Assembly (NCBI RefSeq): GCF_003704095.1
Contig: NW_020843442.1
Coordinates: 124,001-188,000 of the forward strand
DNA length: 64,000 nt
Origin: Pocillopora damicornis
Lineage: Eukaryota
Reading direction: 5' to 3'
A program made the position numbers and the translations under genes. Shown here piece after piece: positions 199-29,072 of the stretch. Numbering within the stretch: the stretch's first letter is position 1; each line of letters starts with the position of its first letter. The notes beneath the pieces were generated by a model that saw only the letters and a list, made by a program, of their open reading frames with translations, was not told the origin of the DNA and did not search any database.

Positions 199-802
199 CT
201 TAGGATTTCTGTGTCCATCTGTCAGACATTTCTCAGGTTCCTTGGAAGGTGGTGAAGCTTGCCTACAACTTTGACTCACACCCTCATCTAGCAAACAAAC
301 ATCACTTGGAAAGCAAAGGAACAAAAAAAATTAACATGTATCTAAAGGGAAACACAAATGAAACAACTAAAATAAATTCCACTCATATTCTAAAAGTCAA
401 ATGACTATGGATATTGTGATCAAGCATCTCATAAATTACTTTAGTTTAAGAAGTTGAATTGTTATAGCTTGTGAAAATTAATTCTGTTAAATAATAACAA
501 ACGAAGTTAACGGTTCGAATTCGAGACAAAATTTTTACCCTCGGGTTCAAAGCTTGGATAACCAAATAAAACCTCAGGCATCACTTAGAAAGAAACGCAA
601 GTTTTCTATCGTCACTTCACTTCATCGTTTTAAGCGTTCATTGACAACAACTGACAGTATGACAGAAGATCGCGACTTGGTCGGAATAATACGGAAATCA
701 CGATCATATCCAAAAAAAAATCTTATTGGGACCAGATAAATACCCATTTTTGAACGGCAAAAACTTACTCATTCTCCGGAGAACCACCTGAGGCAAAGCC
801 AT
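199..802 (-). CDS. 5' coding exons of an unidentified gene running off the left edge (MALPQVVLRRMNEGVSQSCRQASPPSKEPEKCLTDGHRNPK...)
   Basis: Minus-strand exons 847-769 (ATG at 802, donor gtaagt) and 287-199 (acceptor ...gctag, donor gtgtga) join in frame at phase 1. No recognisable domain. Confidence 0.5.
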
Positions 803-1089
803 TTGTTTTCCAACCCGAGTATGGTCTTTGCTCAGCTTTATCAAGGCCTATATAGGAGGAAAAAAACTGACATTAGTGAACTGCAGCAGCAAGGCATTCG
901 ATTTATGTTTTGTTTAATGTGTGGAAGTTAGCTTCCTTTCCCACTTCACAAATGCTCAGGTAGAAATTGCAATACCTTCTAACAGGCTTTCACTCATTTT
1001 TTTCTATCAGGCATAACAAACAAACGGAGCAATTCCTGAAACTGGGGAGCAATCAACTGTACCATACGTGGCTCGAATAAAACTATTTC

Positions 1090-1710
1090 TCCGTTAACCG
1101 CCCGCCATTTTGCAAGCAAATTTTTCAGCCTCGCTTTGGTGCCAAGGGCTGTTCGTAAAATTCACAGCGGAACTGAAACCATCATATGCGCAACGATCCG
1201 AATTAGAGCTGCGCAGATTTCCAGATGTAAACAGTACGGTGGCTAACGTTCTTTCCTGAGGCAGCGCTGTAATCAAATGCGATGGACTGAGCGGAAACTG
1301 TACATTTATCCACTTGATCTGCTCTTAGATATGTAAGATGATATTTCAGGAACGGTCAAGCGAGGGTGTGGTATTGCCTGTGGAGGTTTTTGCGCCGAAA
1401 ACGTACACGGACCAGACTGGTATGTCCTTCAGTTGCTTTTTCTTATTTAAAATTTTTAACTGGGAAGGACTAGAGTGCGTGTTTGTTTTCGAAACTATCG
1501 TCAGTTTTACATCCGGTTTTAAAAGTTTCAAAAGTTCTTACGGTACAAGTTGATATCTGGATCCGGTTTAAGCCGAGTTATTTATGTACACGTCAACGAC
1601 CGTCGTTACACTTTGTTTTGGTTTCGCCTTTTGTTTCCAATGGGTCACAAGCAAAGCCTTTTATTTTCCAGGGTTGGAAACTGCTCATGTGAGAACCGGA
1701 AGTTAGTGAA
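1090..1710. promoter_or_regulatory. Probable bidirectional promoter between the minus-strand gene and kinase gene 1
   Basis: YY1-type CAAAATGGCGG on minus (~1101-1112), ETS-type ACCGGAAGT at 1695-1703, CpG enrichment relative to flanks, divergent genes on both sides. Confidence 0.5.
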
Positions 1711-1980
1711 AAAGAGAAAAAAAAATTGAATGACCATTTGTTTTATTTCAAAGAGAATATATCGATACAATAAATTAAACTATTACTTTTGGCAGAAGAG
1801 ATTGGAAATATTATCAATCTCGCCGAAACAATCAGGGTGTAATTGCTGTTAATGTCTCCCAATAGGTCTCACTTTATTAAATCTGTTTGTCTTTATCATT
1901 AATAATATGTTTCTTCTTTCTTTAAAACAGGCCACCTTGGCTGATTTTCCAATGAGAATTCCAATGTGATTGGCTCAGCT

Positions 1981-4900
1981 ATGGAACCATTTGCGCGAGA
2001 CAAGGGTGAAGGAACAAAGAAAGTAATTGTAGCCAGTGACAGTGCTCGTAATCACAGTCTTAGAGCAAGATCATCAAAGAGCTTAAGCTCTCAGAGGCAC
2101 AATAAAAACCGTGCAAAAACCTACAATGGATACCACATTACTAACAGCAATACATGGCAGAGAGGCCCAGTAAATCTAACAGCAGGAAATGCCAGCATGG
2201 AGAAAATTCCTTTGGGACACTACAGAAGTGGAAACAACTCAAACAATTTGTACCCTGGCATACACCTTGATCATTCCAGTAACTTTTCATCAAACTCTAG
2301 AATTGCAAAGTTCAATGCAACACTTTTTTCTTCAGCCTCTCATCTTACAAATCAAGGATCTGATATCGAGGAAGCCATGGATATTGATCACCAGGAGATG
2401 AATGATGAAGGTGTTGGTTTTGAAGGAAATAGTACATCTGTTTTACAAGAGGGAATTAATGCTTCCAGGCAGTTGGGAGCTCCAGTAGAAGATCAACCTT
2501 TGGAACACAAGATCAAAATAGTTGTTGGTGAATCTTCCTCTTCAGGTGAAAAATCAAAGGTAAGTATCAGAGACAATAAGATTGTGGGATATTTTGAAAA
2601 AGTAATTACACAGTAAGTTTTAATTGAGGTAGTCAAAACTATTCTTGCATTCCGGGACCACCCAATTTTCTTTGGCAAATCATGACACCAGTTTCAAACA
2701 ATCATAGATCATTTCATTATTCCATGCCAATTACAGCAAGGTTAATCTGTTAACATGGCTCCTTTGTTTATGTTTAAATTTAGTTATTTCCATCACCACA
2801 CCAATAAATGATAACTGAGAATTTCATTGAAGGCACAAATTAACTTGGTTATACTTATTTGCTAAGAATGAATTGACTAATAAGCAATTTACACCTTAAT
2901 TTGAATTAAAACAAAGAATGCACCAGTGTTATAAGGTGTTTTATGACCAGAAAATAAATATTGGTTACACTAACTCCCATAAATGACTAAGAAATAATTT
3001 TTCCTTACAGTATGAATACAATATCAGGCAGAGTGAGTATAACAAAAAATATTAATTAGGGGATTATCATCTGATCGTACATCAAATTCTCAGAACAAAC
3101 TGTATAAGGAATGTATGACAGATTGTAAGGAGAATTTTCATTTTAGAAATTGGTTGTGAATGGGTTAAAATTGTCTTATTTTCCTTACCTATTAGGAACC
3201 AAAGCAAGAAATTCAGATAGCAAAGCAGAAAAAAGAGGTAAAGGAACAGAAGCTGCAAACACTGAAAGCTGCTCCGACTGTGTCAGTGAACCGGAAGAGG
3301 CCAATTTACATTGTCCTTCATGTGGGTAACATTCAGATTGGAGAGTTTACAGGAAAGGCATCAGCTCCAGTAAAGGTATATATAAGGCAATGAGTTTGTT
3401 AGGGGTACGTCATATTTGATTTACAAGTAATTACTGGTAATGCAAAGAAACAAAGTGATCTTGGTCCTTAATGCTTTTACTGCCGAGATCTTTTAAGAAA
3501 TTCTCCTTACTATATGCCATAAAATTCTTATGATGATAATGCCGAGAATTAGGTATCAGATTAACTTATAATTACCTAATTAATTAATATTTTTCTTCTG
3601 CTCATCATTCATCTGCTTGGTACTCTACGTGTATTGTGAGAAGAGATTCTGTCTTGGTCAGTCATGGTAGTTTAAGTGTTAACCCTTTCACAGCCATGAT
3701 CTCATCAGTAATTCTACTAACTGCCTGCTATACAATTTTCTTGATGTGAGTGAAGATGTAAGAATTTATTATTGGATCATCTCACAATCCCCTAATTTAA
3801 ATTTTTCTTTATTCTCGTCATTTGTCTGCTTGATATTGAAAGGAGAAATTCTGTATTGATAACTCATGGGAGTTGAAGGGATAGCACCCTATCATATATA
3901 ATGATAATGATAATGATAAGGAATTTATTTAGCGCTAAAACTATAAACAATAATCAGAAGCACTTTACATAAGTTAAAGTTCTATGCTAATTAAAATATT
4001 ATAATCTACCATGCACTATGAATTTTTTTCTATTAAGAATTTTTAAAAGACCGGGGAAAAATTGCATGAATGCCATGATTTGAACAATTGATACTAATAA
4101 TTATTTATTAATAGTTGTGATTGAGTGATGAAGTACTTGCAATTTTTTTTAATAGATATATGCAGAGAAAATTTTCATAGAAATGGAGACAAATGAAGGT
4201 AAACTCACCCTCTTTACTATTTTGTCATAAGAGCTGTAATTTGGAAAGTGCATGGTTCTCACACAAATAAAACCCTCAAGGTAATTTATCAAATGTTTTT
4301 ATGCTTGATTAGGAATTGGTTCCAAAACTGTTTCGCACCACTTCAGAATTCCCTGTAAAGATTTAACAGAATGCAAGGTAAATTACTAATGTTACTTACT
4401 GGTATGCTCTGGTTTTTCTAGTTTCTTCCTTTCCAGTACAGTTTTCAAAATTATGACAGCTAGTAGCTTGATTATTTTTATCATCAGTATTTTAATCAAT
4501 AGATTTATACTAAATGCTTCTTGTGCTGCACAGTAGCATAAAGTGATAGTCTCAGCCACTGTTTGTTCTTTGTCTTTCGATAGGCAAGTTTTGTGGGTTC
4601 CCCTTTACTTCTTGTTGCCAGACCAACTCCTGCTGGGGCAGCTGCCATTTGTGAAAAATGTAAGGATCAAGGAAAATTTCTAGACCCTGAAAGTCAAGGT
4701 ATGCCAGCTGTCATATATAGAGAATGATGCAGAATTTATTCCTTTATCCTTGATTTTTGATCCTCAAGCCTCAGTTCTCAACTGTCCCTTCAGGGGTTTT
4801 AAAACAGTTCAACAACTGCCAGAGTGCCACTAGCTACTCAATAACATGTCGCTGGTTACTTTGGTCAAAATAATTACCTTTAAGTCCTTAATGAACTTTT

Positions 4901-7900
4901 CACAGTCACTTACTTTTGCAAAGTCTGATGCCTACTTCAAACCTTTTTGAAACCCCTGCCTCTGATTGTCTATAGGTTTGTAGGATTGAGTTTTGAGTCA
5001 AAACTGTCAACTTAGTTTTCAATGATACTATACATCAATTATATTTTGTACCAGATACAAAAAAGAGGGATATTGTTCTGGTGATGAATTACAAAGTGAT
5101 ACCAAGAGACACTAAAGCTGACTTAATTGAGTTGGTGGGTTTTCTATCTTTGTTGTGTTCCACAATAATTAAGAAATAATTATTTCTAATTGTATACTCT
5201 AATTCTATATCTCAGTGTGTTTAACTGATGATCCAAATTTTGTGACTCAAGGTTTAATGCCTCTATCTGCTTGCATTTTCCTTTGCATTCAATTACCAAT
5301 TAAAAAAGCACTTACAGTCACTTGCTTTGACTGGGGAATGAACGTATAGCTTCTCCATAGCTGGTAAGATATTAATCAGAAAAGCATTTAGCTGGGAAAC
5401 TTACTCTTTCAACTTCCAAACTGAAGAGCAAAATTGATTGTAAATTTTTCTCCATATTTCAGTTTCAGAACCGTTTTGCTGAACAGCTATTGTGGAGTGA
5501 GCTGAGGTATACAGAGAATAAACATTAGCTAAATATTTCATTTTGCTTTAAATGTGGGAGGGAGAGTATTGATATTGCTCCTCTTTAACTTAACTGCACA
5601 CAACCATCTTTGGAGTTGTTCTAAAATAATTCTACCAGAATGGTCACTCTTAGGGGCTTTTTCAACAAATAAGAGAAAGAGGAAGCTGTAGCTTGGAAGT
5701 TAGCTATTAGGTAGTGCAGCAAGGAGCTGCTAGAGATGGGCAGGCTAGAAAGCCTCAGCCCTGCCCTTTTCTCCCCTTCAAATGCACCTATGAACATCAA
5801 CTTGCTTGCCCTTCCCAAGAAAAAAATTGCTTTTTTTGTTGTTATCCCAAGTTTAAAGGAAGCACAGGAATTTTTCGACAAGAAGCAAGATGTTGTTGTC
5901 CCCTGTGAACAGCCACAAAGTCCACATCCACCAATCACAGGAGGCCCAAACACAGAAGGCCCAAGCACAGGAAGCTCAAGCACAGGAAGCCCGAGCACTG
6001 GAAGCCCGAGCACTGGAAGCCCGAGCACAGGAAGCCTGAGCACAGGATGCCTGAGCACAAGAAGCCCGATCAATTTAGAGCAAAGGAAAATACTAACACC
6101 CAAAGGTACTGTTGTATTCTGTTATTAAAATAATCCGTGTAATTAAAATACTCTTCATGAAGAACTCTTTTAGTTACATGCCGCGAACTTGGGAATCTGT
6201 GTAATTTAGTTGAGATAGTTCCGTTTGTTTTGTGTTCATTCATGTATATAGCTTATTCATTTTTTATATCACTCTCGTACTTTTTGTGTATTTCGGAATC
6301 AAGTTATGAAAACCTTTTTAAGTCATTCATGGTAAAACGTCATCTCTACTCTGCTACTCTGCATGTTGCAGCACATGCACTGAGTTGCAGCCCATGCACT
6401 GAGTTGCAGCCATGACATGTACATCGTAATAAAGGCTAAGAATGCATGCAAGATGGAATTGCACAGGTGCTACACATTGACCTGCTTCTCTTACATGTAG
6501 TATGATGCAACTATAGGTCTTGTTATTCATCCTGGATAATTGTAGGTTACCGCCCCTTCTCNNNNNNNNNNCCCCCCCCCCCCCCCCCCACCCCCAACCT
6601 CATTTTTTGCTCACGTACCAATATATATATGTGCTTGGACCTAAACGACCCTATTTACTTCTTTTTTTTTGTCAGCACTAGATAATTTTTTATGTTCATT
6701 TCTTTACGCAGGTAAAAAGCATGCTCGGAAAAAGCTTCTCACAAATGAAACAAAGTCTCCTCCGGTGAGGAATTCTTATATCGTGTTTCGTAAACTTCCT
6801 TTGTGTGTATAAATCATTGAGGAAGAATTGCAATAATAGGACCAGGGTCGTAAAAGGAGCCATTAGGTTAATCAATGAATATTTTGAGGGAAACCGTTAC
6901 AGTTATCAGAATGTCGATTCTTTTTCGGGGGAATGGGGTAGGTGCGGTCACCGACGTGGAAAAGTGATGAAACAATTGTACATGGCAGTTTACCCTTAAA
7001 ACTGAAAGGGTGACGTTCGTCAAAAAATAATTGGTTTTTTTTCTTTTGTTTTTTTTCATACAGGCCAAGGAACCAGTATCTCCCTCTAGTGGTGTAAAGC
7101 AGGCTGAATCGGGATGTCAGACGGAAAAAAATGACTCAGCAGAAAACGCCATACTAACTCGGAGTAGACGAAGGAAGGCGTCAGAGGTCCTTAACATGGA
7201 CAAACCTGAAACAACTGGTTTTGAACCTGTCAAGCTGGACATTCTTCTCCATCATACAAAAATGCAGTCGCAAATCACCTTACTGGATCAGCACAGCAAG
7301 GAGCAAAGGGAGAATTTACAACAACACCAGAAGCTGCTTGAAATAGAAAGGGGAAAGCTGCAGGAAATGGAGGAAGAGAAAGAACGACAACTCGGGCGAA
7401 TGAGAGACTTGGAGATAAGTTATTCCACCGATAGAGAACGTCTTCGAGTCTTAGAAAACACTGTGGTGGAAAAGGATCGCGTCTTAGCACAACAAGCTGC
7501 TAATTTAGCTATGATTAATAATGAACTAGAACGAGAGCGTGTTTCGTTGCGACAGCTTCAAATAGAGCTCGAACAAGAGCGTGAAGCGGGTTCCCATTTG
7601 CGCAAAGTTCAAAATGATCTTGTTCGTGTTCGTCGAGCGCTGGATGAAGAGAAAACTGTGCGCGACATGAGAGAGCAGCAACTGAGGGAGAAGGAGACAA
7701 GCTTGCTCGAAATACAAAGAACACTGAGTGACGAACAGCAGGAAAGATTAAGGCTGGAAGAGGAGCTGCGGCAAGCGAGAAATGCCTGCACCCAGCTGGA
7801 GAGAAGTCTGGAAAGTGAACGGTTGTCGAGTCAGTCCAGTCAAGAAGATATTCAAACAAAGCAGGACACTATTGCTGAACAGCTCGATCTTTTACAGCAG

Positions 7901-9360
7901 GAACGCGAGGAGAAGAGAGATCTGGAGGAAAGGTTAAGGAACCTGCAGATTCAAGTGGACGAGGAGCGAAGCAGGCGTATCTCAACGGAGAGAGAACTAG
8001 ATGAAGAAAGAATGATTGTGCAACAGAATAGAGAGACCATGGGGCGAGAGCGCGAACAGTACGAACAACGAATCCGAGAGAGTGAACGAACCGCGTCCGA
8101 AAGCGAACGTCGACTGCGAGAATTGCAATCAGCGGTTTCTGTGGCGCAAGACGCCTTAGCCGAATATCGTCGCCTTGAGCCACGTGACTGGATTATTCGA
8201 AGAGAGGAAGTAACTCTCACTGAAAACAGTTTGGGTGTAGGGGCCTGGGGAAAGGTTTACGGAGGAACGTTTCGCGGTTGTCAAGTCGCGGTGAAACAAA
8301 TTCACGATCTTATTCTGTCACCGCATAATCGCAGACTTTTTGAGCGTGAAATGAGTATCGCATCACGATGCCGACATCCTCACCTGCTACAGTTTATTGG
8401 TGCGACGAATGATGATGGCAGCCCTTTGTTTATAACCGAACTACTCGATACGGATTTGAGGAGAGTTTTAGAACAGCGGGCTCTGCACCAAGAGGAGATC
8501 ATCTGTCTCGCTTTGGATGTCGCCAAAGGACTTAACTATCTCCATCTTAACAAACCTTTCCCCATCATGCATAGAGACATTAGCAGCTCAAACGTGTTGC
8601 TATGGAGACGGGATGACTGTTGGAGGGCAAAGCTTTCAGACTACGGAGCAGCAAATTTCATGCGCCAATACATGACAGTCAATCCAGGAGCCAGAATTTA
8701 CGCTGCTCCTGAGGCCCTTACTTCCCAGCAATCTCCAAAGGTAAAGATGTGTACGTATTATTAATAAAAGTTCCTCGCGGAACCTTAGATCCCTATTCGA
8801 ATTTTGATCAGTGTTTTTAGCTTGTTATCAGCTGCATGTATTTTCATTGAGTCTCCCTTGTTTTATATCAATGTCCTCTACTTTTGCGCAGTAATGCCTG
8901 TTACTTCCCGCTTTTGTGGAAAATCTATTTTAGGACACCTCTAATCATGAAATTAGATTCAGACACCTACTGAGTGCTCCTGTTACCTTTAGTATCTGAT
9001 ATATTCATTGAGAGGGACACTCCTATTCTGAGACACTTTCTCTAGTGACGATTTAATCCCTTGACTGAAAGTCCCACTTAACATCGTTACGACTACTTCA
9101 CCTTCCAGGCGGATGTGTACAGTTACGGTTTACTGCTATGCGAGATGTGCATCAGAGAGCTTCCGGTTCCGCAACAGATCCATCAACAAATAGGCCTGGT
9201 AACGAACGGTGTTCTCCGAGAGCTCATCATGCGGTGTGTCCTAACAGACCCTGAAACGCGTCCCTCTGTCAGTGACGTCATCGCGGTGCTAACTCAGCAA
9301 TCGGAGTCCATACGAGCGCTGGGACTGGTGTCATTGAATGGAAGAACAGCTACTTTATGA
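1981..9360 (+). CDS. Kinase 1: TKL-like Ser/Thr kinase, ~1113 aa (disordered N-terminus, PH-like domain, GSPST repeats, coiled coil, C-terminal kinase)
   Basis: Exons 1981-2559, 3196-3375, 4156-4198, 4313-4377, 4584-4698, 5055-5134, 5463-5506, 5852-6105, 6712-6764, 7064-8740, 9109-9360; all GT-AG, phases match, total 3342 nt. In-frame TGA at 1942 lies upstream of the ATG. Motifs GVGAWG, VAVK, HRDISSSN, DYG, YAAPE, DVYSYG. Confidence 0.85.
3468..3885. mobile_element. Two adjacent ~210 bp TTAA/CCC-terminated (piggyBac-like) MITE copies
   Basis: Share the body (aattctccttact...aggagaaattctgtcttggtca) with copies at 46775-46986, 47566-47777, 48502-48882 and 60275-60453; ttaaccctt at 3679. Confidence 0.6.
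3899..4050 (-). mobile_element. LINE (L2-like) 3' end remnant
   Basis: Minus strand reads gtaaagtgcttctga...gcgctaaataaattcc followed by a (TTATCA)n tail. Confidence 0.4.
5958..6069 (+). repeat. Coding 15-bp tandem repeat (~7 units) encoding GSPST-like pentapeptides
   Basis: ggaagcccgagcac(t/a) units translate GPST-GSSST-GSPST-GSPST-GSPST-GSLST-GCLST-RSP. Confidence 0.9.
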
Positions 9361-9920: not shown

Positions 9921-11324
9921 AAATATTGTGACCTCTGGCCAGATTTTAAGTGTTGTTATCGCCATGTGATTGCCCTGTTTTCTTACCGATTACGTAGCGT
10001 GTATTTTGAGCACGATATGCATAATTTAAACTTGAGCAGGTCTTTTGTCCATGACAAGTCAACCATGCAGTTTGACAACGCAATGCCAATAATAATTAGC
10101 ATTTGAAACACTTATCAAAGGTTTAACAACAAGCGACTGAAGTGAACTTTCCCTAAACGTTCGCACCTCGGTTCTCAGTCAGTTGATGTGCATCTCGACA
10201 AGTTGTAAAGATAACTTTTGATAAATCTCTCACACGAGCGAGCGATAAAGTTAAAGGATGTGTTAGCAACGTTAAGTGAGGGTTCTGTTAGTTGCTTTCC
10301 ACGTTACAAACCTGTGTCTTCAAAGAATTTAAATTTCGACTTCCGTAGTAGATTGAAAGGAATCAGACATGGGGAATACGGTAAGTTTCCTCGTTTTAGA
10401 TCCTCAGTGTTATGTGATTCTTTAAGTTTGCAGCCAATAACGGTTGTATTTGATAAACGTGTTTGAAAGAGGTCTTTACCGTTTCCGCTTTACCGTTTCT
10501 ACGCTCACGAAAAGCAGTTTGATGCTCGTACGATGGACTCGTTGTAGATGGTGACAGAGTTATGAAGGGTTTACTAGGGAACCGAACCGCAGCGACTAAC
10601 CGAACATGAGATTTTATGTTTATTACTTCAATTCTGCATCGAAATTACTTTAGCCATGACGAGTAGCTGTTTTAAAAACTCATCCGCTGACCAGTGGCTA
10701 GCTAATACTGTTTACATCTAAGTTAGAACTGTTCTTGGGAATTTTACTTGCACGAGTACTTCTCTTATAACTACACCGTCCGAAGATACATCATACCAAT
10801 GTTTAAAAAGAAGGGATCAAAGATAGCATGAACTTGTTAAGATAATTGGTGCTTCTTTGAAACGAAAGAATGCAAACTTGACTTTGGTAGAAACTATGTT
10901 ATTATTAGTGAAGTGTCGAAAAGTGGGAGGGCCCAACAAGGAATATTTAGCTCAGGGGTGCGGCATGGTTGTTCGTGCGTCATTACCGAAAGCCAATTGT
11001 TTTGTCCTCAGCCCCACCAAATTCAGTCATTAAGCATTTATCCTATGACGTCTAAGTCTTTAAAATTTCGAAATGATGCTTGAACCTGAATAGGATGCGA
11101 TTACATTGTAAGCAGACCGCTTACTGGAAAACTTGAACAGGATGAAACCTTATCCCTTATGTCTTCAAGTCAGCGATGGAAATTCGTAATTCATGGACTA
11201 ACGCGACTTATTTTCCCATTTCTCTCTTATTCCACACCTAGTCCTCGTCCTCGAAAAATATTTAAATGATAAACATGAATTGCGGGTGTGGAGTCGCACA
11301 GCTGTTTCCAAGTTGGCTTACATC

Positions 11325-11326
<2 letters not shown>
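9921..11326 (+). repeat. Kinase-2 upstream block, segmentally duplicated
   Basis: Diverged copies at 27490-28676 (+, lacking ~240 bp near its start) and 12753-13785 (inverted). Confidence 0.9.
10905..11043. mobile_element. Degenerate palindromic ~130 bp element (Crypton-like MITE)
   Basis: Imperfect palindrome gtgggagggccc..aatatt / gccaa..ttt..ccc..tcagtca.taag. Also inside the duplicated blocks (~13050-13185, ~28280-28420), with an independent copy at ~43845-43962. Family assignment is from recall. Confidence 0.4.
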
Positions 11327-11392
<66 letters not shown>

Positions 11393-11565
11393 CCTCAAAA
11401 ACGTCCTTGCTTTCAGGAGGGTTTTTCATAAGATTGCGTGAACGAAACCTTAATTTTGATAACAGTTTGTGGATGTTTAAGATTTCACAAATTCAGCGAG
11501 TTCAGATAAGTGTTACAAGCTCTTACAAAAACTTTATCTTTCAGAGCATAAAAGAACTTGAACAA

Positions 11566-12652
11566 ATGGGAGAAGTCATCCCAGAATTCAGCTCACAGGA
11601 CTCTTCAGATGTCGAGAGAACTTTCCAAGTTGTTGGAAACAAAGATGACGAAAACACGGTATCTAATGAAGAAATCCCAGCAGGTGACAATTTTAAGGCC
11701 AAAGCCAGACCAAAGAAAGAGAAAAAGCGAGATAATTTGAAAACGGAGAGCAAAGCTGATCAAGAACTTTCCGAAACATACCTTGAAGAGCACATTCCCC
11801 GTAAAAAGAAGGCCATGAAAGCAAAGATTAAACATTTATTGATAGAACTGCATGGAAAAGATGAAATTCTTTCAAAAGGAAAGGAAATTCTTGACCGTTT
11901 GACTGTTGAACGAGAACGTCACTTGGAGCGCATTGAGGAAAAGGAGCAGGTCATTGAAGGCAAGGAATTTGTTATCCAGTCTTTTCAAGAGAAAATGCAA
12001 ACATTTATTCAACGAATAGACGAAAAAGAGTCAGAGCTAAGAGAAAAAGAACGATTATTAAATGAAGCGAATGATCGAATTGAGCTGTTACAGAAACAGC
12101 AAGCCGAACAAGAGGAGATTGTGAAAGAAATGCAGAGCACAATGGAAAATTTGGATAAGCAAACGAAAAACGGCTATCATTCCAGAGAAGCATTCAATGC
12201 TGACTTAGATGTTAAAGTTGAGTTTGAGTCCCTCAAGAGAGAAAATGAACGCTATAAGCTACAACTGCAGGAAAATCTTAGCACTCTGAGAGAGAGAGAA
12301 CGCGAGATAAACTCTTTAAAGCGTGAAAAGGAAACTATTCAACAAGAGAAAAGACATTGCGATCAGATCAGTCTTGAACGAAAGTTTTCAGTCGATCGAT
12401 TAAACAGAGAGAAGGAAAGAGGCTTGGCATATCTCGACCAGTTAGAGATAAGACTAAAAGAGAAGGACCAGGCAATGCAGCAAGCTCGAGATGAGAGTAT
12501 TGAACTCCGAGATCAACTTAAACGCAAAGATAATTTGCTTTTGGAGAAGGACAGGACTTTGGAAACGTTAGAAAACTCAAGAAAAGGGACGTCTGACCGA
12601 TTGGATAGACTCGAGAAGCAATGGCAGGACGAGCGCAGAACACAACGAAATG
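11566..12652 (+). CDS. Kinase 2 copy A: N-terminal coiled-coil part, truncated by an assembly gap
   Basis: MGEVIPEFS...; nearly identical to 15140-16228; open frame with CGA(Arg) at 12598-12600; runs into Ns at 12653. Confidence 0.75.
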
Positions 12653-12752
12653 NNNNNNNNNNNNNNNNNNNNNNNNNNNNNNNNNNNNNNNNNNNNNNNN
12701 NNNNNNNNNNNNNNNNNNNNNNNNNNNNNNNNNNNNNNNNNNNNNNNNNNNN

Positions 12753-13785
12753 GGGGGGGGTTGATGTAAGCCCACCTGGAATAAGCCGTGCGACTCCGCA
12801 CCCGCAATTCATATTTATCATTTAAACATTTTTCGAGGACGAGAATTCTAGGTGTGGAATAGGAGAGAAATGGGAAAATAAGTCGTGTTAGTCCATGAAT
12901 TACGAATTTCCATCGCTGACATGAAGAAATAAGGGATAAGGTTTCATCCTGTTCAAGTTTTCTAGTAAGCGGTCTGCTTACGATGTAATCGCACCCTATT
13001 CAGGTTCAAGCATCATTTCGAAATTTTAAAGACTTAGACGTCATAGGATAAATGCTTGGTGACTGAATTTGGTGGGACCGGAGGGAAAATATTTGGCTCT
13101 CACTTCTGACGCACGAACAACCATGCCGCGTCCTCGAGCTAAATATTCCTTGTTGGGCCCTTCCTCTTCTAGATACTTCACTAAGAATAACATGAGATTT
13201 ACCACTGTCATTTTTATGTTCTTTCGTTTCAAAGAAGCACCACAATCAATTTCGAATTATTTCGTCTCAGCACGAATTACCCTGACGAGTTCGTATCTTT
13301 TTTTTTAATAATGGTATTATGTATGTTCGGACGGTGTAGCTACAAGAGAAGTACTCGTGCAAATAAAATTCACAAAAACAGTCATAACTTAGATGTAAAC
13401 AGTATCAGGTCAGCGGATGAGTTTTTAGAACAGCTCCTCATCATGGCTAAATCAATTTGGTTGTAAAATTGAAATAATAAACATAAAAAAACTTTATGTT
13501 CGGTTAGTCGCTGAGATTAAATTCTCATATAAAACCCTATGTCACCATCTACACCGAGTCTATCGTGCGAGTATCAAACTGCTTTTTGCTAGCGTAGCGC
13601 GAGTTAAAATTTTGGTTAGCTAAAACGGAAACGGTAAATACCTTTTTAAAACACGTTTATTTTAAATACAACCGTTTGTGGCTGCAAACTTAAAGAATCA
13701 CATAACACTGATGATCTACAACGAGGAAACTTACCGTATTCTTCATGTTTGATTCCTTTCAATCTACTGCGGAAGTCGCAATTCA
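12753..13785 (-). repeat. Inverted copy of the kinase-2 upstream block
   Basis: Reverse complement matches ~10325-11330 and, more closely, ~27660-28680. Confidence 0.9.
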
Positions 13786-13809
13786 GACAGACAGGGATGA
13801 GGTAAGTAA

Positions 13810-14797
13810 GTAAGACAGAGATGAACAACCGTGGGTTGCAGTTTCAGCGTAAAGACAATTCAGGTTGGTAAGTCATTAGATGCCATAAATTCATTTTTCG
13901 GGTAGCTTGATTTGTAGGTTTTCAAGACAGAATCCTTAAATTTGTGCCAAAGTCTGGCAAGGTATCTTGTGAACAAAGTCGATTCCTTCTTTTTAGATTA
14001 TTCATTGCCACCTAACAAGCGCTTTAGAGTAGTTTATCATGATTTTACTTTTATACAATTTAGATTTTTTCGCACGGGTTCATCAGTTATATGGGACATA
14101 ATGTTATATCCTGTTCTTTTTCTAAACGAAAGAAAGATTCTGTGACTTGGCAGTTTATTTTCAAATCAATATTTTTTTTAGTTGCGTTGTGCGTTTCCAG
14201 GATATGACTCTGTCTTTAAAATATTACATTTCTTAATGATCTTTATCTTAATGTTCGTAGAAATTGGTTTTAATGAGAGCAAATGGAACGGAATTGATAT
14301 CTAGGAATAGAATTTTCATCAAAGTTTGGGTTGCACCTGGATTGAAACACTTAACATTCTCCGCCAACATATTAATGTTCTCTATTTAATATTTACATTC
14401 AGGCGGCACAAATAATTAATTTATGATCGAAGCTTGGCACTTTTCTTTCTCTTTTGTTCATTTTAGTAACTTTTTTTGTTTTAAGCTTTTTCACACACAC
14501 ACACACTTACAAAAATCACTTTGAATTAAAGATCAAAGCGGTGTCTTAGTTGTACAATTTTTTTTGTGAGCACGTCAAACTTCAATTAAACTTCGTTTCC
14601 TAACAATTACTGCATCAGAATTTTGTGATCGGTTATAAAATCAACGGAACCCCATGAAAGTCATTGCTCTTTACCTGCGAGTTGAAGTTGTGATTCCTGA
14701 ACGATACTTACTTCAGTTTTGACAATTATGAAAGAACAACGTTCTCGTAGTTTTTAATTTACGTTTCCTTATCGGGCATATACTACATATCATATTT
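13810..14797 (+). repeat. Copy of the GPCR upstream block
   Basis: Matches the reverse complement of ~32545-33540; further pieces at 17874-18164, 18793-18903, 19576-20742 and 21611-24057. Confidence 0.85.
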
Positions 14798-15139
14798 AAT
14801 ATATTAAAGTTCACACGGCAACCAGGTGGACAATCAGACATAGTTTGNNNNNNNNNNNNNNNNNNNNNNNNNNNNNNNNNNNNNNNNNNNNNNNNNNNNN
14901 NNNNNNNNNNNNNNNNNNNNNNNNNNNNNNNNNNNNNNNNNNNNNNNCTCCCCCCTCTTCCCCAGGCCTCAAAAACGTCCTTGCTTTCAAGAGGGTCTTT
15001 CATAAGATTGCGTGAACGGAACCTTAATTTTGATAACGGTTGGTGGATGTTTAAGATTTCACAAATTCAGTGAGTTCAGATAAGTGTTACATGCTCTTAC
15101 AAAAACTTTATCTTTAAGAGCATAAAAGAACTTGAACAA

Positions 15140-17664
15140 ATGGGAGAAGTCATCCCAGAATTCAGCTTACAGGACTCTTCAGTTATCGAGAGAACTTTCC
15201 AAGTTGTTGGAAACGAGGATGACGAAAACACGGTATCTAATGAAGAAATTCCAGCATGTGACACTTTTAAGGCCAAGGCCAGACCAAAGAAAGAGAAAAA
15301 GCGAGACAATTTGAAAACGGAGAGCAAAGCTGATCAAGAACTTTCCGAAACATACCTTGAAAAGCAAATTCCCCGTAAAAAGAGGGCCATGAAGTCAAAG
15401 ATTAAACATTTGTTGATAGAGCTACATGGAAAAGATGAAATTCTTTCAAAAGAAAAGGAAATTCTTGACCGTTTGACTGTTGAACTAGAACGTCACTTGG
15501 AACGCATTGAGGAAAAGGAGCAGGCCATTGAAGGCAAGGAATTTGTTATCCAGTCTTTTCAAGAGAAAATGCTAACATTTATTCAACGAATAGACGAAAA
15601 AGAGTCAGAGCTAAGAGAAAAAGAACGATTATTAAATGAAGCGAATGATCGAGTTGAGCTGTTACAGAAACAGCAAGCCGAACAAGAGGAGATTGTGAAA
15701 GAAGTGCAGGGCACAATGGAAAATTTGGATAAACAAACGAAAAACGGCCATCATTCCAGAGAAGCGTTCAATGCTGACTTAGATGTTAAAGTTGAGTTTG
15801 AGTCCCTCAAGAGAGAAAATGAACGCTATAAGCTACAACTGCAGGAAAATCTTAGCACTCTAAGAGAGAGAGAACGCGAGATAAACTCTTTAAAACGTGA
15901 AAAGGAAACTATTCAAGAAGAGAAAAGAGATTGCGATAAGATCAGTCTTGAACGAAAGTTTTCAGTCGATCGATTAAACAGAGAGAAGGAAAGAGGCATG
16001 GCATATCTCGACCAGTTAGAGATAAGACTAAAAGAGAAGGACCAGGCAATGCAGCAAGCTCGAGATGAGAGTATTGAACTCCGAGATCAACTTAAACGCA
16101 AAGATAATTTGCTTTTGGAGAAGGACAGGACTTTGGAAACGTTAGAAAACTCGAGAAAAGGGACGTCTGACTGATTGGATAGACTCGAGAAGCAATGGCA
16201 GGACGAGCGCAGAACACAACGAAATGCGTATGATGCGTTACGTGACGAGAAACGTGCGTGTGAAGAACGTTTGCAGCGCGCTCAAGCGGATGTTGAAACA
16301 TATCAAAGACGTAACCGTGTCTTAGAACGTGAAATTGATAGAGCGCGTCAAACTACTGACATATTCCGTGGAGATCAACCATGGATCATCCCAAGAGAAG
16401 AAATCAAACTCTCCGATAAGGTTCTTGGTACTGGCGCGTGGGGAAGAGTCCTTGAAGGGAATTTTCGAGGAACAAAAGTGGCAGTGAAAGAAATCCACGA
16501 AATAATTCAATCAGCTCATAACAGACTCCTCTTTGATCGCGAAATCACGTTTGCCACTCTAGTGAGACATCCATGTATTTTACAGTTCTTAGCTGTGGCT
16601 GATTACCGTACCAGCAAACCCCTCTTAGTGGCGGAACTCATGGACATGTCTTTGTCTCAACTTGTTAAAGATGAGAAAACCTTAGGCAACAGATACATCA
16701 GGATACTGGCGCTTGATGTCGCTTATGGTCTGAACTACCTTCACTGCTTCCGACCCAATCCCATACTGCATCGTGACGTAAACAGCGGGAATGTCATGGT
16801 TTGGCGCCAAGGTGACAAGTGGCGCGGGAAACTCTGCGATTTTGGGTCAGCGGAGTTCATGGGAAGCAAGATGTCAGAGAATCCGGGAAATCCGTTTTAC
16901 TGTGCTCCTGAAGCAAACAGTTCTAGACACTGCCCCAAGGTAAAAAAAAAAAAAAAAGTGATAATAATTATGGACAATTTACCCGTCTAGTCTCTCCATT
17001 ATCCAGGTTTTATCATATAAAAATATCATAGAGAAGTGCGTTCATAAACATCAGTGTCTAGGATTTCTTATTCCGAGTTTTTCGGTTTGAGGTTATTAGA
17101 CCGACAATAACAGTCACTTTTTATACGGACTGAGTCAAAGAGTAGCTTAGTGAAACCCACGTAGCAAAGATCGTCAAACCTGTCGACTAATTATTTGGCT
17201 TGACAATTTTTTCCCAACCCTGAAATCTTTTTCTTGCAATTAATAATTTGTTTTGGATAAAACTGCAAAGAAAAAAAAACAGACAAAATCAGATCGGATC
17301 AGTTTCAGTATCTGAGCACCTGCGCGCCTACTCCTCCCCAAACTCAACATTAACCCTAGCTTGTTATCTTATCAAATGTTTTATTGGGTTAGGGGAGGGG
17401 TAGGCGGGCAGTTGCTCAGATACTGACATTGATCTACAACTCTTCATGTTTGCTTCCCAACAGATGGATGTGTACAGCTTTGGTGTTCTCCTCTGTGAAC
17501 TCTGCATCAACCAAACACCTAATCCTGCTGAAAGAGAGCGACAAATTGCACTGATGTGGAACAAGGACCTGAGAGAGTTGGCTGAGCAGTGCATCACACC
17601 AGATCCGCTTACACGATGTACCATGACTGACGTCATCAATGTGTTAGAGCCCATGACCGCGTGA
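15140..17664 (+). pseudogene. Kinase 2 copy B: coiled-coil + TKL-like kinase (666 codons) with a premature TGA at codon 345
   Basis: Exons 15140-16939 and 17464-17664, with the intron at the same PK|xDVYS position as kinase 1. Motifs GTGAWG, VAVK, HRDVNSGN, DFG, YCAPE, DVYSFG are intact. TGA at 16172-16174 where copies A and C have CGA. Confidence 0.8.
17295..17435. mobile_element. ~140 bp palindromic MITE in the kinase 2 intron
   Basis: Arms ggatcagtttcagtatctgagca / tgctcagatactgacattgatc, inner cctcccc..aacc / gggttaggggagggg; second copy at 39354-39482. Confidence 0.7.
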
Positions 17665-20600
17665 GACATTAGAACTAGGTTTTTAAGTCTGAGATCATCT
17701 TACATGTTTCACACGTGATTGAAGCTTCCGTGAATTTTATTAAATGCTTGTTCGAGCAACTATACCTTGTAAANNNNNNNNNNNNNNNNNNNNNNNNNNN
17801 NNNNNNNNNNNNNNNNNNNNNNNNNNNNNNNNNNNNNNNNNNNNNNNNNNNNNNNNNNNNNNNNNNNNNNNNNTTACTGCCTCAGAATTTTGTACGTGAT
17901 CGGTTGTAAAATCCACAGCACCCCATGAAAGTCATTGCTCTTTACCTGCGAGTTGACGTTTAAATTAAGACTGGTGCCTTAGTCTCTCGCGTTTTTATCG
18001 GATGAGTGCCCTGGCTCCAACAACTTCTTTATTTTGCTCGAGGGTTCACTGTGTCACTTACAGGTTTGAGGTTTCNNNNNNNNNNAAGTATAGCCAATCA
18101 GATGTAACAGGACCTGTTCAGAGCACTTAAAATTTATTTCAAGTACACTTCAACTGTCCAGTGTNNNNNNNNNNNNNNNNNNNNNNNNNNNNNNNNNNNN
18201 NNNNNNNNNNNNNNNNNNNNNNNNNNNNNNNNNNNNNNNNNNNNNNNNNNNNNNNNNNNNNNNNNNNNNNNNNNNNNNNNNNNNNNNNNNNNNNNNNNNN
18301 NNNNNNNNNNNNNNNNNNNNNNNNNNNNNNNNNNNNNNNNNNNNNNNNNNNNNNNNNNNNNNNNNNNNNNNNNNNNNNNNNNNNNNNNNNNNNNNNNNNN
18401 NNNNNNNNNNNNNNNNNNNNNNNNNNNNNNNNNNNNNNNNNNNNNNNNNNNNNNNNNNNNNNNNNNNNNNNNNNNNNNNNNNNNNNNNNNNNNNNNNNNN
18501 NNNNNNNNNNNNNNNNNNNNNNNNNNNNNNNNNNNNNNNNNNNNNNNNNNNNNNNNNNNNNNNNNNNNNNNNNNNNNNNNNNNNNNNNNNNNNNNNNNNN
18601 NNNNNNNNNNNNNNNNNNNNNNNNNNNNNNNNNNNNNNNNNNNNNNNNNNNNNNNNNNNNNNNNNNNNNNNNNNNNNNNNNNNNNNNNNNNNNNNNNNNN
18701 NNNNNNNNNNNNNNNNNNNNNNNNNNNNNNNNNNNNNNNNNNNNNNNNNNNNNNNNNNNNNNNNNNNNNNNNNNNNNNNNNNNNNNNNNNNNTTTATCAG
18801 GATTTTACTTTTATACAATTTAGACTTTTTCGCACGGGTTCATCAGTTTTATGGGACATGATGTTATATTCTGTTTTTTTTCTAAACGAAAGAAAGATTC
18901 TGTNNNNNNNNNNNNNNNNNNNNNNNNNNNNNNNNNNNNNNNNNNNNNNNNNNNNNNNNNNNNNNNNNNNNNNNNNNNNNNNNNNNNNNNNNNNNNNNNN
19001 NNNNNNNNNNNNNNNNNNNNNNNNNNNNNNNNNNNNNNNNNNNNNNNNNNNNNNNNNNNNNNNNNNNNNNNNNNNNNNNNNNNNNNNNNNNNNNNNNNNN
19101 NNNNNNNNNNNNNNNNNNNNNNNNNNNNNNNNNNNNNNNNNNNNNNNNNNNNNNNNNNNNNNNNNNNNNNNNNNNNNNNNNNNNNNNNNNNNNNNNNNNN
19201 NNNNNNNNNNNNNNNNNNNNNNNNNNNNNNNNNNNNNNNNNNNNNNNNNNNNNNNNNNNNNNNNNNNNNNNNNNNNNNNNNNNNNNNNNNNNNNNNNNNN
19301 NNNNNNNNNNNNNNNNNNNNNNNNNNNNNNNNNNNNNNNNNNNNNNNNNNNNNNNNNNNNNNNNNNNNNNNNNNNNNNNNNNNNNNNNNNNNNNNNNNNN
19401 NNNNNNNNNNNNNNNNNNNNNNNNNNNNNNNNNNNNNNNNNNNNNNNNNNNNNNNNNNNNNNNNNNNNNNNNNNNNNNNNNNNNNNNNNNNNNNNNNNNN
19501 NNNNNNNNNNNNNNNNNNNNNNNNNNNNNNNNNNNNNNNNNNNNNNNNNNNNNNNNNNNNNNNNNNNNNNNNNNNTTTTTTTGTTTTAAGCTTTTTCACA
19601 CACACGAACACACGCACACACTTACAAAATCACTTTGAATTAAATATCAAAGCGATGTCTTAGTTGTACATTTTTTTTTTGGTGAGCACTTCAAACTTCA
19701 ATTAAACTTCGTTTCCTANNNNNNNNNNCCTCAGAATTTTGTACGTGATCGGTTGTAAAATCCACAGCACCCCATGTAAGTCATTGCTCTTTACCTGCGA
19801 GTTGACGTTGTGATTCCTGAACGATACTTACTTCAGTTTTGACAATTATGAAAGNNNNNNNNNNTCGTAGTTTTTAATTTACGTTTCCTTATCGGGCATA
19901 TACTACATATCTTATTTGTTTGAATTTTCTTATTGACTGAAATCATCGGCAAATGGAAAATGTTTCTTCAATACGGCCAAGTGTAGCTTAGNNNNNNNNN
20001 NTGAAGGTTTGAGTGTTGGACGTCTTAACTCACTGAAACTTGCTCTAAGTATCGAGCTTAGAGTGCACACAACGTGCTAAAATAATTGCAGTTACTGAAT
20101 GCGCTGTAGCAGGCCTCTATCTGCGGTGACGATTTTTAAAGCAAACGCACGTGTTGCTGGGAAACGTAAGATCAAGTTCGTGATCGAATCCTTATTCTTT
20201 ATTCATTGAGGAAAGTTTCGTTGATAAATTAAGGTGTTGTTGCCTATTGACAGTTTATCCAACAATTTATGTAAAGTAAATTTTGATTGTTTTGATCATG
20301 CTGTTTCATACTATTGTTTTCTGAACGTAAGTCACAAAAGACCACGTCTGTATTCAGTTCGTCTTTTGAATTTATCTAAATCGGATATTCAAGTTATAAA
20401 ATTGCGATTAAAATCAAGATCTGAGTCATATACTATACAGAGGACTCAAATCTATTATTGGTGGTCGTCCGAACTTTTCTGTTCCCGAAGGAGACAGGGA
20501 AAATAAATTGTAGGAACAAACATATACAGTAACAAGGAATTTATTAAGATGTGTATATCATGAATTTCTGATTGAAAAAACCAGTTTTCGTCAGGAAATT

Positions 20601-20742: not shown

Positions 20743-21459
20743 ATGTCATCTGATGTTGCTTTTACAACCGCACTGGCCATACTCATTATTGTGGACATCA
20801 GTNNNNNNNNNNTGGTCTGTTGGGTCGTCAAGAGAAACCGAGATATGAGGCATGTTGTATCTGTTAAAGAATACTCAGCCGTGTGTACCTCAGTTATAGG
20901 CTTAATTTCGTCTCCAAGGTCCTCATAGTAATGGCATGCAGGAAGATAGAGGGCTTGGGAACGAGGTCACGTAATGCTCAATTGCGTTTCCAGCTCGATA
21001 TAAGCGTAAAGGCATGCGCAGCGAGAAGTTATCATAAATTCCTTTCACATGGGAAATCATGAGGCAGAAATGAGCCCAGAAATGAGGATCCTTATGCTTT
21101 TGACGAATAAAGAACTCTACTTTTCGCAGTTAATATGCTCTTTTATTCTCCTGAATTTACCGCCTATTCGTGTGAAAGCAAATCCTCATTTTCCTTTTCT
21201 TATTGCATCTTACTTCTTTGAAGCTTTGCTGTTGTTGTTTGAATAATATTGTTTGAATATCATATTCATTCTATAGGACTCCGTTTAATTGGCTGCTTGT
21301 CAACCTAGCTATAGCAGACATCACGTTCGCGGTTTTCCAAGTTCCGAATCGCATTTTAACGTTCACCCACCCCGATGGGACCATTGGCTCAACTTTATGC
21401 AAAGCGCTCACCGCTGGTAATGTGGCCTGGGTCGGGGCGGCGGCTGGAACCATTACTCT
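20743..21459 (+). CDS. Class A GPCR copy 1, partial (TM1 to TM3, then gap)
   Basis: Exon 20743-20849 (GC donor) and exon 21277-21459+; MSSDVAFTTALAIL..., RTPFNWLLVNLAIAD. Confidence 0.7.
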
Positions 21460-22227
21460 NNNNNNNNNNNNNNNNNNNNNNNNNNNNNNNNNNNNNNNNN
21501 NNNNNNNNNNNNNNNNNNNNNNNNNNNNNNNNNNNNNNNNNNNNNNNNNNNNNNNNNNNTCGGTTACATTCATTAAATCTGCAAACCAGTGTAGCTTCAA
21601 ACTATGTCTGACATATCATATTTGTTTGAATTTTCTTATTGACTGGAATCCTCGGCAAATGGAAAATGTTTCTTCAATACGGCCAAGTGTAGCTTAGGCG
21701 GAAATCATGAAGGTTTGAGTGTTGGACGTCTTAACTCACTGAAACTTGCTCTAGGTATCGAGCTTAGAGTGTAAACAACGTGCTGAAATAATTGCAGTCA
21801 CTGAATACGCTGTAGGAGGCCTCTATCTGCGGTGACGATTTTTAAAGCAAACGCAAGTGTTGCTGGGAAAGGTAAGATCAAGTTCGTGATCGAATCCTTA
21901 TACTTTATTCATTGAGGAAAGTTTCGTTGATAAATTAGGAGTGCCCATTGACAGTTTATCCAACAATTTACATAAAGTATGATTGACATTTGATTAGAAA
22001 AATGATTATGACATATTCTATTTTTCTACCGGAAATTCTCAGAAGTTGCAATGTACCAACCTGAACTTAGAAAAAAGTACATTTGATTGTTTTGATCATG
22101 CTTCTTCATACTATTGTTTTCTGAACTTAAATCAGAAAAGACCACTTCTGTATTCAGTTCGTCTTTTGAATTTCTCTAAATCGAATATTCAAGTTATAAA
22201 ATTGCGATCTGAGTCATATACTATACA

Positions 22228-23750
22228 TGGTAACCGGTCAAGTCGCCCGAGAGTCATCTCGCCTGAAGTCATGTCGCCCGAAATTTTAATAATGTCGCCC
22301 GAAGTAACAAATACTAAAAAGATCAGAATTTCAGACTGTAAATAGGCAATAACATTGAGAAATTTTTTATCACTAAAGCGCTCTTTGTTTCCGACAACAC
22401 CATGAAGAGTCTTAAAGTGCTGTTCGTTCCTAACAACAAAGGGAAACGTTGTTTGTTTCCAACAACAAAATGAAGCGTTGTTCGTTTGGTAGGTACTCGT
22501 TTCTTACTCACGGACATTTCGTAAGCTTGGGAAACTCTTTCTTGTTTCTTAAAATGCCATGAAGACTTTGACCACGCAGAAATCGATTGTATGGTAAAAT
22601 TGAAATATGTTTGAGTAACGACTCTAAAAGCGTTGTTCGTTTCTAACAACAGAGGGAAGTGTTGTTCGTTTCTATAACAACAAATGCATGGATGCAGTGT
22701 AACATACAAGTAAAGTTCTGTTATGTCTATTTGTGACTTTCTTAACTGTAACAGATGAAAACACCTGGTAAACGAATGCGATCGTCACGTTCGATAAGCC
22801 GGTAAAAGATAAAGCGAGTAACATACAAATAAAATTAACTTGTTGCCTTGCGTAAGGTAAGTGTGATATTTTTAAGATAACAGCCTATTGTTTATGCTTG
22901 TGACTTTTTTCATAGTAGTAGTCTGATAGCATCTTTTCCCTTAGGAATAGGCAAAAATTATGTAGTTGTGCTCTGTTTCCTCTGGCGGTCGCATGTATAT
23001 TTTGATCAGATCAAAGTATGTATGAAAAGGGTAAATCTAGCTACAAAACGAATACAAACTGATCAAAATGAGCATTCATCCTTGCATTGAGTGTGATGAT
23101 GAAGTTAGACCACGTCAACAAGCCCTACAGCGCAATGATTACGTATATACGGTCGATCATATGGCCTTTCTGACCATATGATCGATTTCTGTGTAGTCAA
23201 AGTCTTCATGGCTTTGTTAGAAACCAAGAAAAAGTTTCTCAAGCTTACGAAATGTCCGTGAGTAAGAAACGAGTACGTACCAAACGAACAACGCTTCATT
23301 TTTTTTGTTTGAAACGGAGAACGCTTCCCTTTTGTTGTTAGAAACGAACCACGCTTTTAGAATCGTTACTCAAACATATTTAAATTTCGATCATACGATC
23401 GATTTCTGCGTAGTCAAAGTCTTCATGGTATTGTAAGAAACCAACAAAGAGTTTCTTAAGCTTACGAAACGTCCGTGAGTAAGAAACGATTAAACGAACA
23501 ACGCTGCATTTTGTTGTTGGGAATGAACAACGTTTCCCTTTGTTGTTAGGAACGAACAACGCTTTAAGAATGTCTTGGTGTTGTCGGAAACAAAGCGCGC
23601 ATTATTGATAAAAATTTCTCAACGTTATTGCCTATTAACAGTCTGAAATTCTGATCTTTTTAGTATTTGTTCCTTCGGGCGACTTGACTTTTTTTTTCAG
23701 GCGACATGACTTCGGGCGAGATGACTCTCGGGCGACTTGACTGTAAACCA
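22228..23750. mobile_element. Non-autonomous foldback DNA transposon, 1523 bp, with long modular TIRs
   Basis: Termini TGGT..gtcaagtcgcccgagagtcatctcgcc on both strands; inverted arms ~22228-22680 and ~23170-23750; TSD CTATACA at 22221-22227 and 23751-23757; empty site gagtcatatactatacagaggactc at ~20423-20447. Confidence 0.9.
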
Positions 23751-24057
23751 CTATACAGAGGACTCGAATCTATTATTGGTGGTCGTCTGAACTTTCCTGT
23801 TCCCGACGGAGACAGGAAAAATAAATTGTAGGGACGGACATACAGTAACAAGGAGTTTATGAAGATTTGTATACTATGAATTTCTAATTGCACAAACCAG
23901 TCTTTATCAGGAAATTAAATGAAAGGGGGTTCATAAGATTTTAGGTTTCTGAGTAAACCCTATTCATGGTGGCGCACAAAAAAGTATTGGTAACTTTTTT
24001 TTTCAGTTTTTAGACGCAGTAACCTCTGTAGCTCAATAGTATTGCCAACCTTCCGTC

Positions 24058-28676: not shown

Positions 28677-29072
28677 ACGTCTGATCGACTGGATAGACTC
28701 GAGAAGCAATGGCAGGACGAGCGCAGAACACAACGAAATGCGTATGATGCGTTACGTGACGAGAAACGCGCGTGTGAAGAACGTTTGCAACGCGCTCATG
28801 TTGATGTTAAAACATACCAAAGACGCAACCATGTCTTAGAACATGAAATTGATAGAGCGCGTCAAACTACTGACATATTCCGTGGAGATCAACCATGGAT
28901 CATCACAGGAGAAGAAATCAAACTCTCCGATAAGGTTCTTGGTACTGGCGCGTGGGGAAGAGTCCTTGAAGGGAATTTTCGAGGAACAAAAGTGGCAGTG
29001 AAAGAAATCCACGAAATAATTCAATCACCTCATAACAGACTCCTCTTTGATCGCGAAATCACGTTTGCCACT
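28677..29072 (+). pseudogene. Kinase 2 copy C: internal fragment (end of coiled coil to subdomain III)
   Basis: TSDRLDRLEKQW...GTGAWG...VAVKE...REITFAT fused directly to the upstream block on the left and to the GPCR 3' flank on the right, with no gaps. Confidence 0.85.

Follow-up and report, generated by a model that had tools for sequence, protein, structure and literature searches.

Kinase, long coiled coil and PH domain are combined in one chain in ROCK, MRCK and citron, and the SUMO proteases SENP6 and SENP7 (Ulp2-like) carry a PH-like domain of another kind before their catalytic domain. At the start of the stretch analysed here (the window: 64,000 nucleotides of Pocillopora damicornis, assembly GCF_003704095.1, contig NW_020843442.1, positions 124,001–188,000, forward strand) lies a gene in which a SENP6/7-type domain, predicted to be PH-like, is followed by a coiled coil and a TKL-type kinase. 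Like ROCK, MRCK and citron, its product has the three parts in one chain, but in reverse order, with a TKL rather than an AGC kinase and an unrelated PH subtype. With SENP6 and SENP7 it shares a homologous pre-catalytic domain, the same six introns and the same predicted fold; it differs in having a coiled coil and kinase in place of Peptidase_C48, and the segment of the neighbouring SENP that resembles a SUMO-interacting motif appears, from the sequence, not to be retained. Gene models show the fusion in several corals, in an anemone and in a jellyfish, so it is old; the gene encodes a genuine chimeric kinase that has not been described before, and the genome preserves the record of its origin. 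An initial annotation of the window knew of no described protein with this architecture, and a full-text literature search, with subscription journals and supplements outside its scope, likewise found no account of the fusion, of the domain swaps of the kinase family or of the SENP6/7 PH domain.

The fusion-kinase gene lies on the plus strand within the first 9.4 kb of the window. Its 11 coding exons (1981–9360; Table 1), separated by introns that are all GT..AG, share one stop-free frame of 1113 residues encoding, in order, a variable N-terminus, the PH-like domain, a variable linker, the coiled coil and the TKL-type kinase. RNA evidence consists of assembled contigs, not reads, from four runs of four studies (X1, X5, X6 and X7). 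All 11 splice joints, including that of the 5′ untranslated region (UTR) exon, are present in contigs of X1, X6 and X7, and 10 of the 11 in those of X5, where most of the kinase exon is uncovered. The joints 6105–6712 and 6764–7064, which connect the 5′ exons to the kinase exon, occur in all four runs (in X5 with just 30 letters on one side), and two single contigs (X1 record 1, 3562 nt; X6 record 10, 3629 nt) each span the gene from the 5′ UTR exon to the last kinase exon. The seven small exons proposed for the domain by the initial annotation lie where it had placed them, flanked by GT..AG introns, in one frame and spliced in RNA; the kinase, which it had described as a single exon, is split by a last intron (8741–9108), the same as in the neighbouring paralog in the window.

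That these contigs are assemblies rather than long reads, and that the region downstream is gapped and holds duplicated pieces, might suggest transcriptional read-through, or a gene model that wrongly links the remnant of a decayed SENP to an independent kinase. Such an artefact is barely credible and, for practical purposes, is refuted: the in-frame joints recur in four studies, a separate coral transcript (L059) has the same open frame and architecture (66% identical over its own length), models from Stylophora, four Acropora and Montipora clusters, Nematostella and Sanderia agree, and the gene is under purifying selection.

A profile built on four fusion domains gave 34 matches among 1.84 billion proteins: the Nematostella ortholog, a Sanderia malayensis protein, two SENP6/7 proteins with Peptidase_C48, four tandem-copy proteins, 25 short fragments and one match taken as spurious (P0051, BRCA2 repeats); a Pfam scan covered 14 of the 34. 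Matched by this fusion-only profile are a Dendronephthya SENP6-like protein (E 1.3e-4) and a coral SENP7-like protein (E 3.1e-4), both of SENP6/7 type. With hhalign, the fusion domains align to six arthropod-led SENP-type domains (probability 95.5%, 138 columns; 98.4% with a coral SENP row added), insect SENPs from Thrips, Diatraea and Ampulex standing in for human SENP6/7 and Drosophila Velo. Judged by these comparisons, the PH-like domain is homologous to the SENP6/7 pre-catalytic domain, the identity that had been proposed for it. In the tandem-copy proteins (P0023, P0027, P0046 and P0055), the domain occurs two or three times and Pfam detects neither a protease nor a kinase; the SENP6/7 PH-like domain also travels alone. 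The copy of Pfam used has no model for the domain, although a PH-like label for the SENP6/7 domain may already exist in domain databases, and the domain profile matched no PDB chain by sequence (best E 1.2).

An AlphaFold2 model of the fusion domain (four-sequence input; predicted local distance difference test score (pLDDT) 88.7, predicted template modelling score 0.85) shows the seven-stranded β-sandwich and closing C-terminal helix of a PH fold. PH-like domains lead the matches both in Foldseek (lowest E 1.7e-3, so that no hit reaches 0.001) and in VIA-align, where SSRP1-N (Z 9.3, root mean square deviation 3.6, 101 aligned) is followed by SYCP2 (9.2), RDR2 (8.6) and Pob3M (8.5). The insect-led SENP-domain model (pLDDT 84.5) has the same top three (Z 9.9–9.0; SSRP1-N 9.9). 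Both domain types are thus predicted PH folds, an assignment made from these two AlphaFold models; structure searches returned no solved SENP6/7 PH structure. Clusters of PH-like proteins in the ESM Atlas (0.77–0.86 for the fusion domain, 0.82–0.83 for the SENP domain) are leads only. The likeness to FACT-type PH-like domains (SSRP1/Pob3 N, SYCP2, Rtt106 and RDR2), the best structural matches at Z 8–9.3, is one of fold only: identity is ~10%, and the fusion model adds a two-helix insertion and a C-terminal strand and helix. A shared fold by itself shows no function; the folds nearest to the models are those of nuclear protein-binding domains, not lipid binders.

In ROCK, MRCK and Akt, the PH domain recruits the kinase to membranes. 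A classical lipid-binding PH domain doing the same here would be in keeping with the predicted fold, the slight net positive charge (23 K+R versus 21 D+E) and the nearby long coiled coil and kinase, but is very improbable, given that the top structural neighbours are nuclear and bind proteins, that lipid-binding PH domains such as DAPP1 lie far down the structural list (Z 6.1) and that the SENP6/7-type donor is a nuclear protease (PMC11088880).

Head-to-head with the fusion kinase, and lying for the most part in the 10 kb before the window, is a minus-strand SENP6/7 SUMO-protease gene, the two start codons being 984 bp apart. Its 18 exons, a chain defined by RNA joints in four runs of two studies, encode 766 residues without a stop, 73% identical to the Stylophora SENP7-like protein. 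The fusion itself has no Peptidase_C48 (a Pfam scan of orthologs P0001–P0003 gives kinase domains only); the protease is the neighbouring gene, which was missed by a Peptidase_C48 search of the genome (10 matches), its catalytic exons being short. The kinase-borne and SENP domains are identical at 45 of 149 positions (30%), with a local score of 109 against 28 ± 4.5 (maximum 52) in 2000 shuffles. All six intron phases within the domain match (0,1,0,1,0,2), with five introns in identical alignment columns and the sixth displaced by two columns, within a gapped loop; the phase match alone has p ~0.002. Six shared introns exclude retrocopying and point to a duplication at the DNA level, and because insect SENPs carry the domain, SENP6/7 is the donor. 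The fusion domain almost certainly arose by local duplication from this adjacent gene. The Stylophora SENP7-like and kinase proteins have consecutive GenBank numbers (PFX34125.1 and PFX34126.1) and come from contigs of equal size, so that the head-to-head arrangement is probably kept there. The exon-shuffled chimera and the domain identity put forward in the initial annotation both stand, with the donor now traced; what it missed is that this donor is adjacent, that the fusion is old and its domain more constrained than the donor's, and that the kinase family has taken up other domains.

A local inverted duplication of DNA before the split of anthozoans and medusozoans would have given rise to the gene. 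Cnidarian gene models with the fusion were found in Stylophora, Acropora millepora, A. muricata, A. palmata, two Montipora species, Nematostella and the jellyfish Sanderia malayensis, whose protein has the same domain, coiled coil and kinase; its domain is 25–33% identical to fusion domains and 17–18% to SENP domains. This range is a lower bound, the word-based domain search having yielded four clusters among 146 candidates, with octocorals, hydrozoans and sponges neither shown nor excluded. Seven loci from a metagenome scan were too short for synteny.

Compared with Stylophora pistillata, the nearest named relative among the comparisons, the domain in the kinase is 92.7% identical (140/151) and that in the protease 74.8% (107/143), and in a quick tree the branches of cnidarian SENP domains are longer than those of the coral fusion domains. 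The ratio of non-synonymous to synonymous substitution rates (dN/dS) of the PH-like domain, measured against another coral transcript, is 0.18, and of the three single-nucleotide polymorphisms observed across these exons, every one is synonymous. Such constraint means that the captured copy is not a mere remnant. It may now perform the binding role of the ancestral domain: the kinase's copy would have kept the ancestral binding surface, from which the protease's copy drifted.

The kinase is assigned to the TKL group and predicted to be catalytically intact, with the Gly loop, VAVK, HRD, DYG and APE motifs unbroken in all five aligned orthologs. Its nearest solved relatives are the kinase domains of TNNI3K, CTR1, IRAK4 and MLK1 (E 2e-21 to 9e-16), with which it shares HRD and APE; it differs in having DYG for DFG and no ankyrin, death or SH3-CRIB domain, and represents a separate coiled-coil kinase family. 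The RefSeq name ‘tousled-like’ given to P0002 is unsupported, as the 29 solved-structure matches include zero tousled kinases. Compared with Nematostella, a conserved island at residues 226–380 is identical at 74 of 151 positions, the N-terminus at 41/213 and the kinase at 192/250. Two short motifs, M[DE][IV]D before the domain and RKIL after it, are kept in 7/7 orthologs checked.

Retention of the acidic M[DE][IV]D motif in these orthologs would fit a structural job within the kinase only, in which the domain dimerises, or binds this motif or a kinase lobe to restrain the enzyme, and no SUMO link is left. The nearest folds, SSRP1-N and Pob3N, are dimerisation domains (compare the Spt16D–Pob3N entry), and two or three tandem copies occur in the stand-alone relatives, which point the same way. 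We nevertheless regard such a role as quite improbable: ~460 residues, mostly coiled coil, separate domain and kinase, most paralogs do without the PH-like domain, and the gene still lies beside SENP6/7 in at least two corals.

We lean, by a small degree, towards docking: in the spliced gene, a duplicated six-intron SENP6/7 block that encodes the predicted PH-like domain precedes a coiled coil and a TKL-type kinase, and through this domain the kinase is likely docked on the protease's partners. Taken by itself, the docking function of the PH-like domain is put forward more tentatively. The coiled coil would dimerise an active kinase, basic motifs would carry it to the nucleus, and the PH-like domain would dock it on proteins also bound by SENP6/7, with both genes perhaps driven from one shared promoter. 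The basic linker exon (6712–6764) is one that we take to be NLS-like (resembling a nuclear localisation signal) or RxL-like.

Several points weigh against docking or the history proposed for it. We know of no ligand for the PH-like domain in the kinase or in SENP, and residues 1–300 of SENP7 presumably lie before that domain. It is residues 1–300 that make up the cGAS-binding part of human SENP7 (PMC5271409). A nuclear location would follow from the basic motifs, its only basis. The dN/dS of the domain lies only a little under the values for the N-terminus (0.27) and the linker (0.25), where the synonymous rate (dS) is near saturation, and the arthropod-led hidden Markov model gives the fusion domains low scores (E 0.004 at best; 1.3 for the window model at Z=1e6). 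In a kinase tree of 40 rows, from which eight partial or broken kinase exons had been dropped, the PH-bearing kinases group together at a support of only 81/80, which is not starred, so that the case for a single origin depends chiefly on the domain. Proximity to SENP was examined at this locus and, from accession numbers, in Stylophora only.

With donor and recipient still head-to-head, six introns in common and the fusion also in a jellyfish, the locus is an unusually clean record of the birth and upkeep of a chimeric gene. It presents the unstudied SENP6/7 PH-like domain as a portable unit under strong selection, and the Nematostella gene LOC5513787 is a natural construct for finding the ligand of this domain, which bears on SENP6/7 substrate choice.

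The kinase is one member of a family; searching the genome with its kinase exon gave 28 matches (E ≤ 1e-10), of which ~20 are close. Upstream DNA was scanned, within limits, at 14 paralogous loci. At one paralog (L042:5314-9849 = G000:C2092:80313-84848), a five-exon TSG101-like UEV can be spliced on paper, in frame and across GT..AG introns, to the coiled-coil–kinase exon, giving 477 residues without a stop; two further UEV loci occur in the genome. CYLD-like N-terminal exons lie upstream of four paralogs and, weakly, of a fifth, and kinases preceded by CYLD-like N-terminal and CAP-Gly exons (L047:3083-9741, L041:3297-7221, L049 and L050/L051) are matched by RefSeq fusion models in Stylophora and Acropora. 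No captured domain was seen at seven of the 14 loci in this limited scan. Database models in other corals add eIF4G MIF4G/MA3 (two Montipora species), SH3, KH/macro and ankyrin; P0008, P0012 and P0014 look like joined neighbours. The UEV and CYLD-like fusions come from exon reading and the others from database models, with RNA proof for the PH fusion only.

One coiled-coil–kinase module bearing varied host domains, in a family of this size, recalls the plant kinase fusion proteins (Sr43, Lr9 and WTK4), in which an active-looking kinase likewise carries a domain from another host protein and partners vary across the family. The coral gene differs in being an animal gene of independent origin, highly conserved, with a long coiled coil, without a tandem pseudokinase and with no NLR partner seen, and any immune role is putative. 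The plant proteins have been proposed to work as integrated decoys (PMC10260397; compare PMC13478195), and SENP7 promotes cGAS signalling (PMC5271409), which would count for a similar role in the coral. The captured domain would then be bait for a viral or microbial protein attacking SENP6/7, binding of which would cluster the coiled coils and switch the kinase on, as in an oldest member of a set of cnidarian kinase-fusion immune sensors. More broadly, a two-exon coiled-coil–kinase cassette would repeatedly have captured pathogen-targeted host domains (SENP6/7 PH, TSG101 UEV, CYLD CAP-Gly, PARP14-type macro, eIF4G and SH3), as an animal counterpart of the plant kinase-fusion resistance proteins, with this gene its oldest member and still beside its donor. 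Both the bait and the wider decoy family seem unlikely to us. The gene is single-copy, old and slower-evolving than its donor, not an arms-race pattern, and fast or diversifying evolution of the domain is not what was found (93% identity to Stylophora against 75% for the donor, at the dN/dS of 0.18). The other fusions are without RNA proof, half of the scanned paralogous loci showed no captured domain and the three models named above may be joined neighbours. That the donors are virus targets is our assumption, and hub proteins are commonly such targets. As a set of kinases whose N-terminal domains can be exchanged, the wider family offers a candidate, open to testing, for pathogen sensing by decoy in corals.

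Two further candidates for fusion were rejected, a macro-domain gene at L039, which is on the strand opposite to the kinase, and a FEM1-like gene at L044, which lies downstream of the kinase. At L039 (L039:410-9645, on G000:C2282), the closest paralog stands head-to-head with this KH/macro (PARP14/DTX3L-like) gene, and a related Orbicella model (P0004) is a KH–macro–kinase fusion; together they are possibly a second capture from a neighbour gene. Splicing to the kinase could not be shown for an RRM-like exon that lies on the same strand as the kinase at that locus, 4.5 kb upstream. The coral transcript contig L061 combines an N-terminus of the neighbouring-paralog type with a coiled coil and kinase of the fusion type (86% to the window protein), and is either a recombination between tandem paralogs or a chimeric assembly.

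Table 1. Exons and other features of the fusion kinase and the adjoining SENP6/7 gene, in window coordinates
Feature	Position	Strand	Evidence
SENP6/7 third exon; gene continues upstream of the window (contig 114001-124000)	199..304	-	tblastn to Stylophora SENP7-like P0057 77%, splice signals
SENP6/7 second exon	769..847	-	tblastn 56%, AG/GT ends
SENP6/7 first exon, likely start codon 997	976..1122	-	5′ end inferred from length of RNA contig X6 record 6
Likely bidirectional promoter, ~100 bp between the two transcript 5′ ends	1123..1221	.	RNA contig ends; contigs cannot fix the start site
5′ UTR exon of the fusion kinase	1222..1419	+	RNA joint 1419-1931 in 4/4 runs
Exon 2, ATG at 1981; weakly conserved N-terminus and conserved M[DE][IV]D motif (residues 133-136)	1931..2559	+	RNA contigs, ortholog alignment
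PH-like exon, first strands of the domain (residues 194-253); following intron phase 0, likewise in SENP	3196..3375	+	RNA, intron comparison
PH-like exon, 43 nt (SENP 43 nt), phase 1	4156..4198	+	RNA, SENP comparison
PH-like exon, 65 nt (SENP 53), phase 0	4313..4377	+	RNA, SENP comparison
PH-like exon, 115 nt (SENP 118), phase 1; one match only in genome search	4584..4698	+	RNA, SENP comparison
PH-like exon, 80 nt (SENP 77), phase 0	5055..5134	+	RNA, SENP comparison
PH-like exon, 44 nt (SENP 38), phase 2	5463..5506	+	RNA, SENP comparison
Last helix of the domain, then Ser/Thr/Pro-rich linker up to the conserved RKIL motif	5852..6105	+	RNA, AlphaFold model
Basic linker exon	6712..6764	+	RNA contigs
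Large exon: ~315-residue Glu/Gln/Arg-rich coiled coil (sequence reading) and most of the kinase	7064..8740	+	RNA, alignment
Last kinase exon with stop codon	9109..9360	+	RNA joint in 3/4 runs

An intronic repeat element of the fusion-kinase gene (3496–3964) has very high RNA-contig depth and many family copies. Downstream, the neighbouring coiled-coil kinase paralog (15074–17665) has no PH exons, and a TGA at 16172–16174 interrupts its coiled coil; a partial paralog copy at ~11545–12650 has an Arg codon at the position of that TGA, and a third, also partial, copy lies at 28620–29246. Around these copies, inverted duplicated flanks, poly-C runs and N gaps (10400–14200 and 17760–19600) are likely to reflect local assembly trouble or recent duplication. 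Elsewhere in the window, tandem, partly duplicated exons at 21257–30083 are G-protein-coupled-receptor-like by translation, and from their translations we take 35484–36506 to be a single-exon tropomyosin-like open reading frame, 51485–54768 a TFG-like gene and 55339–56830 an NSUN-type methyltransferase gene.

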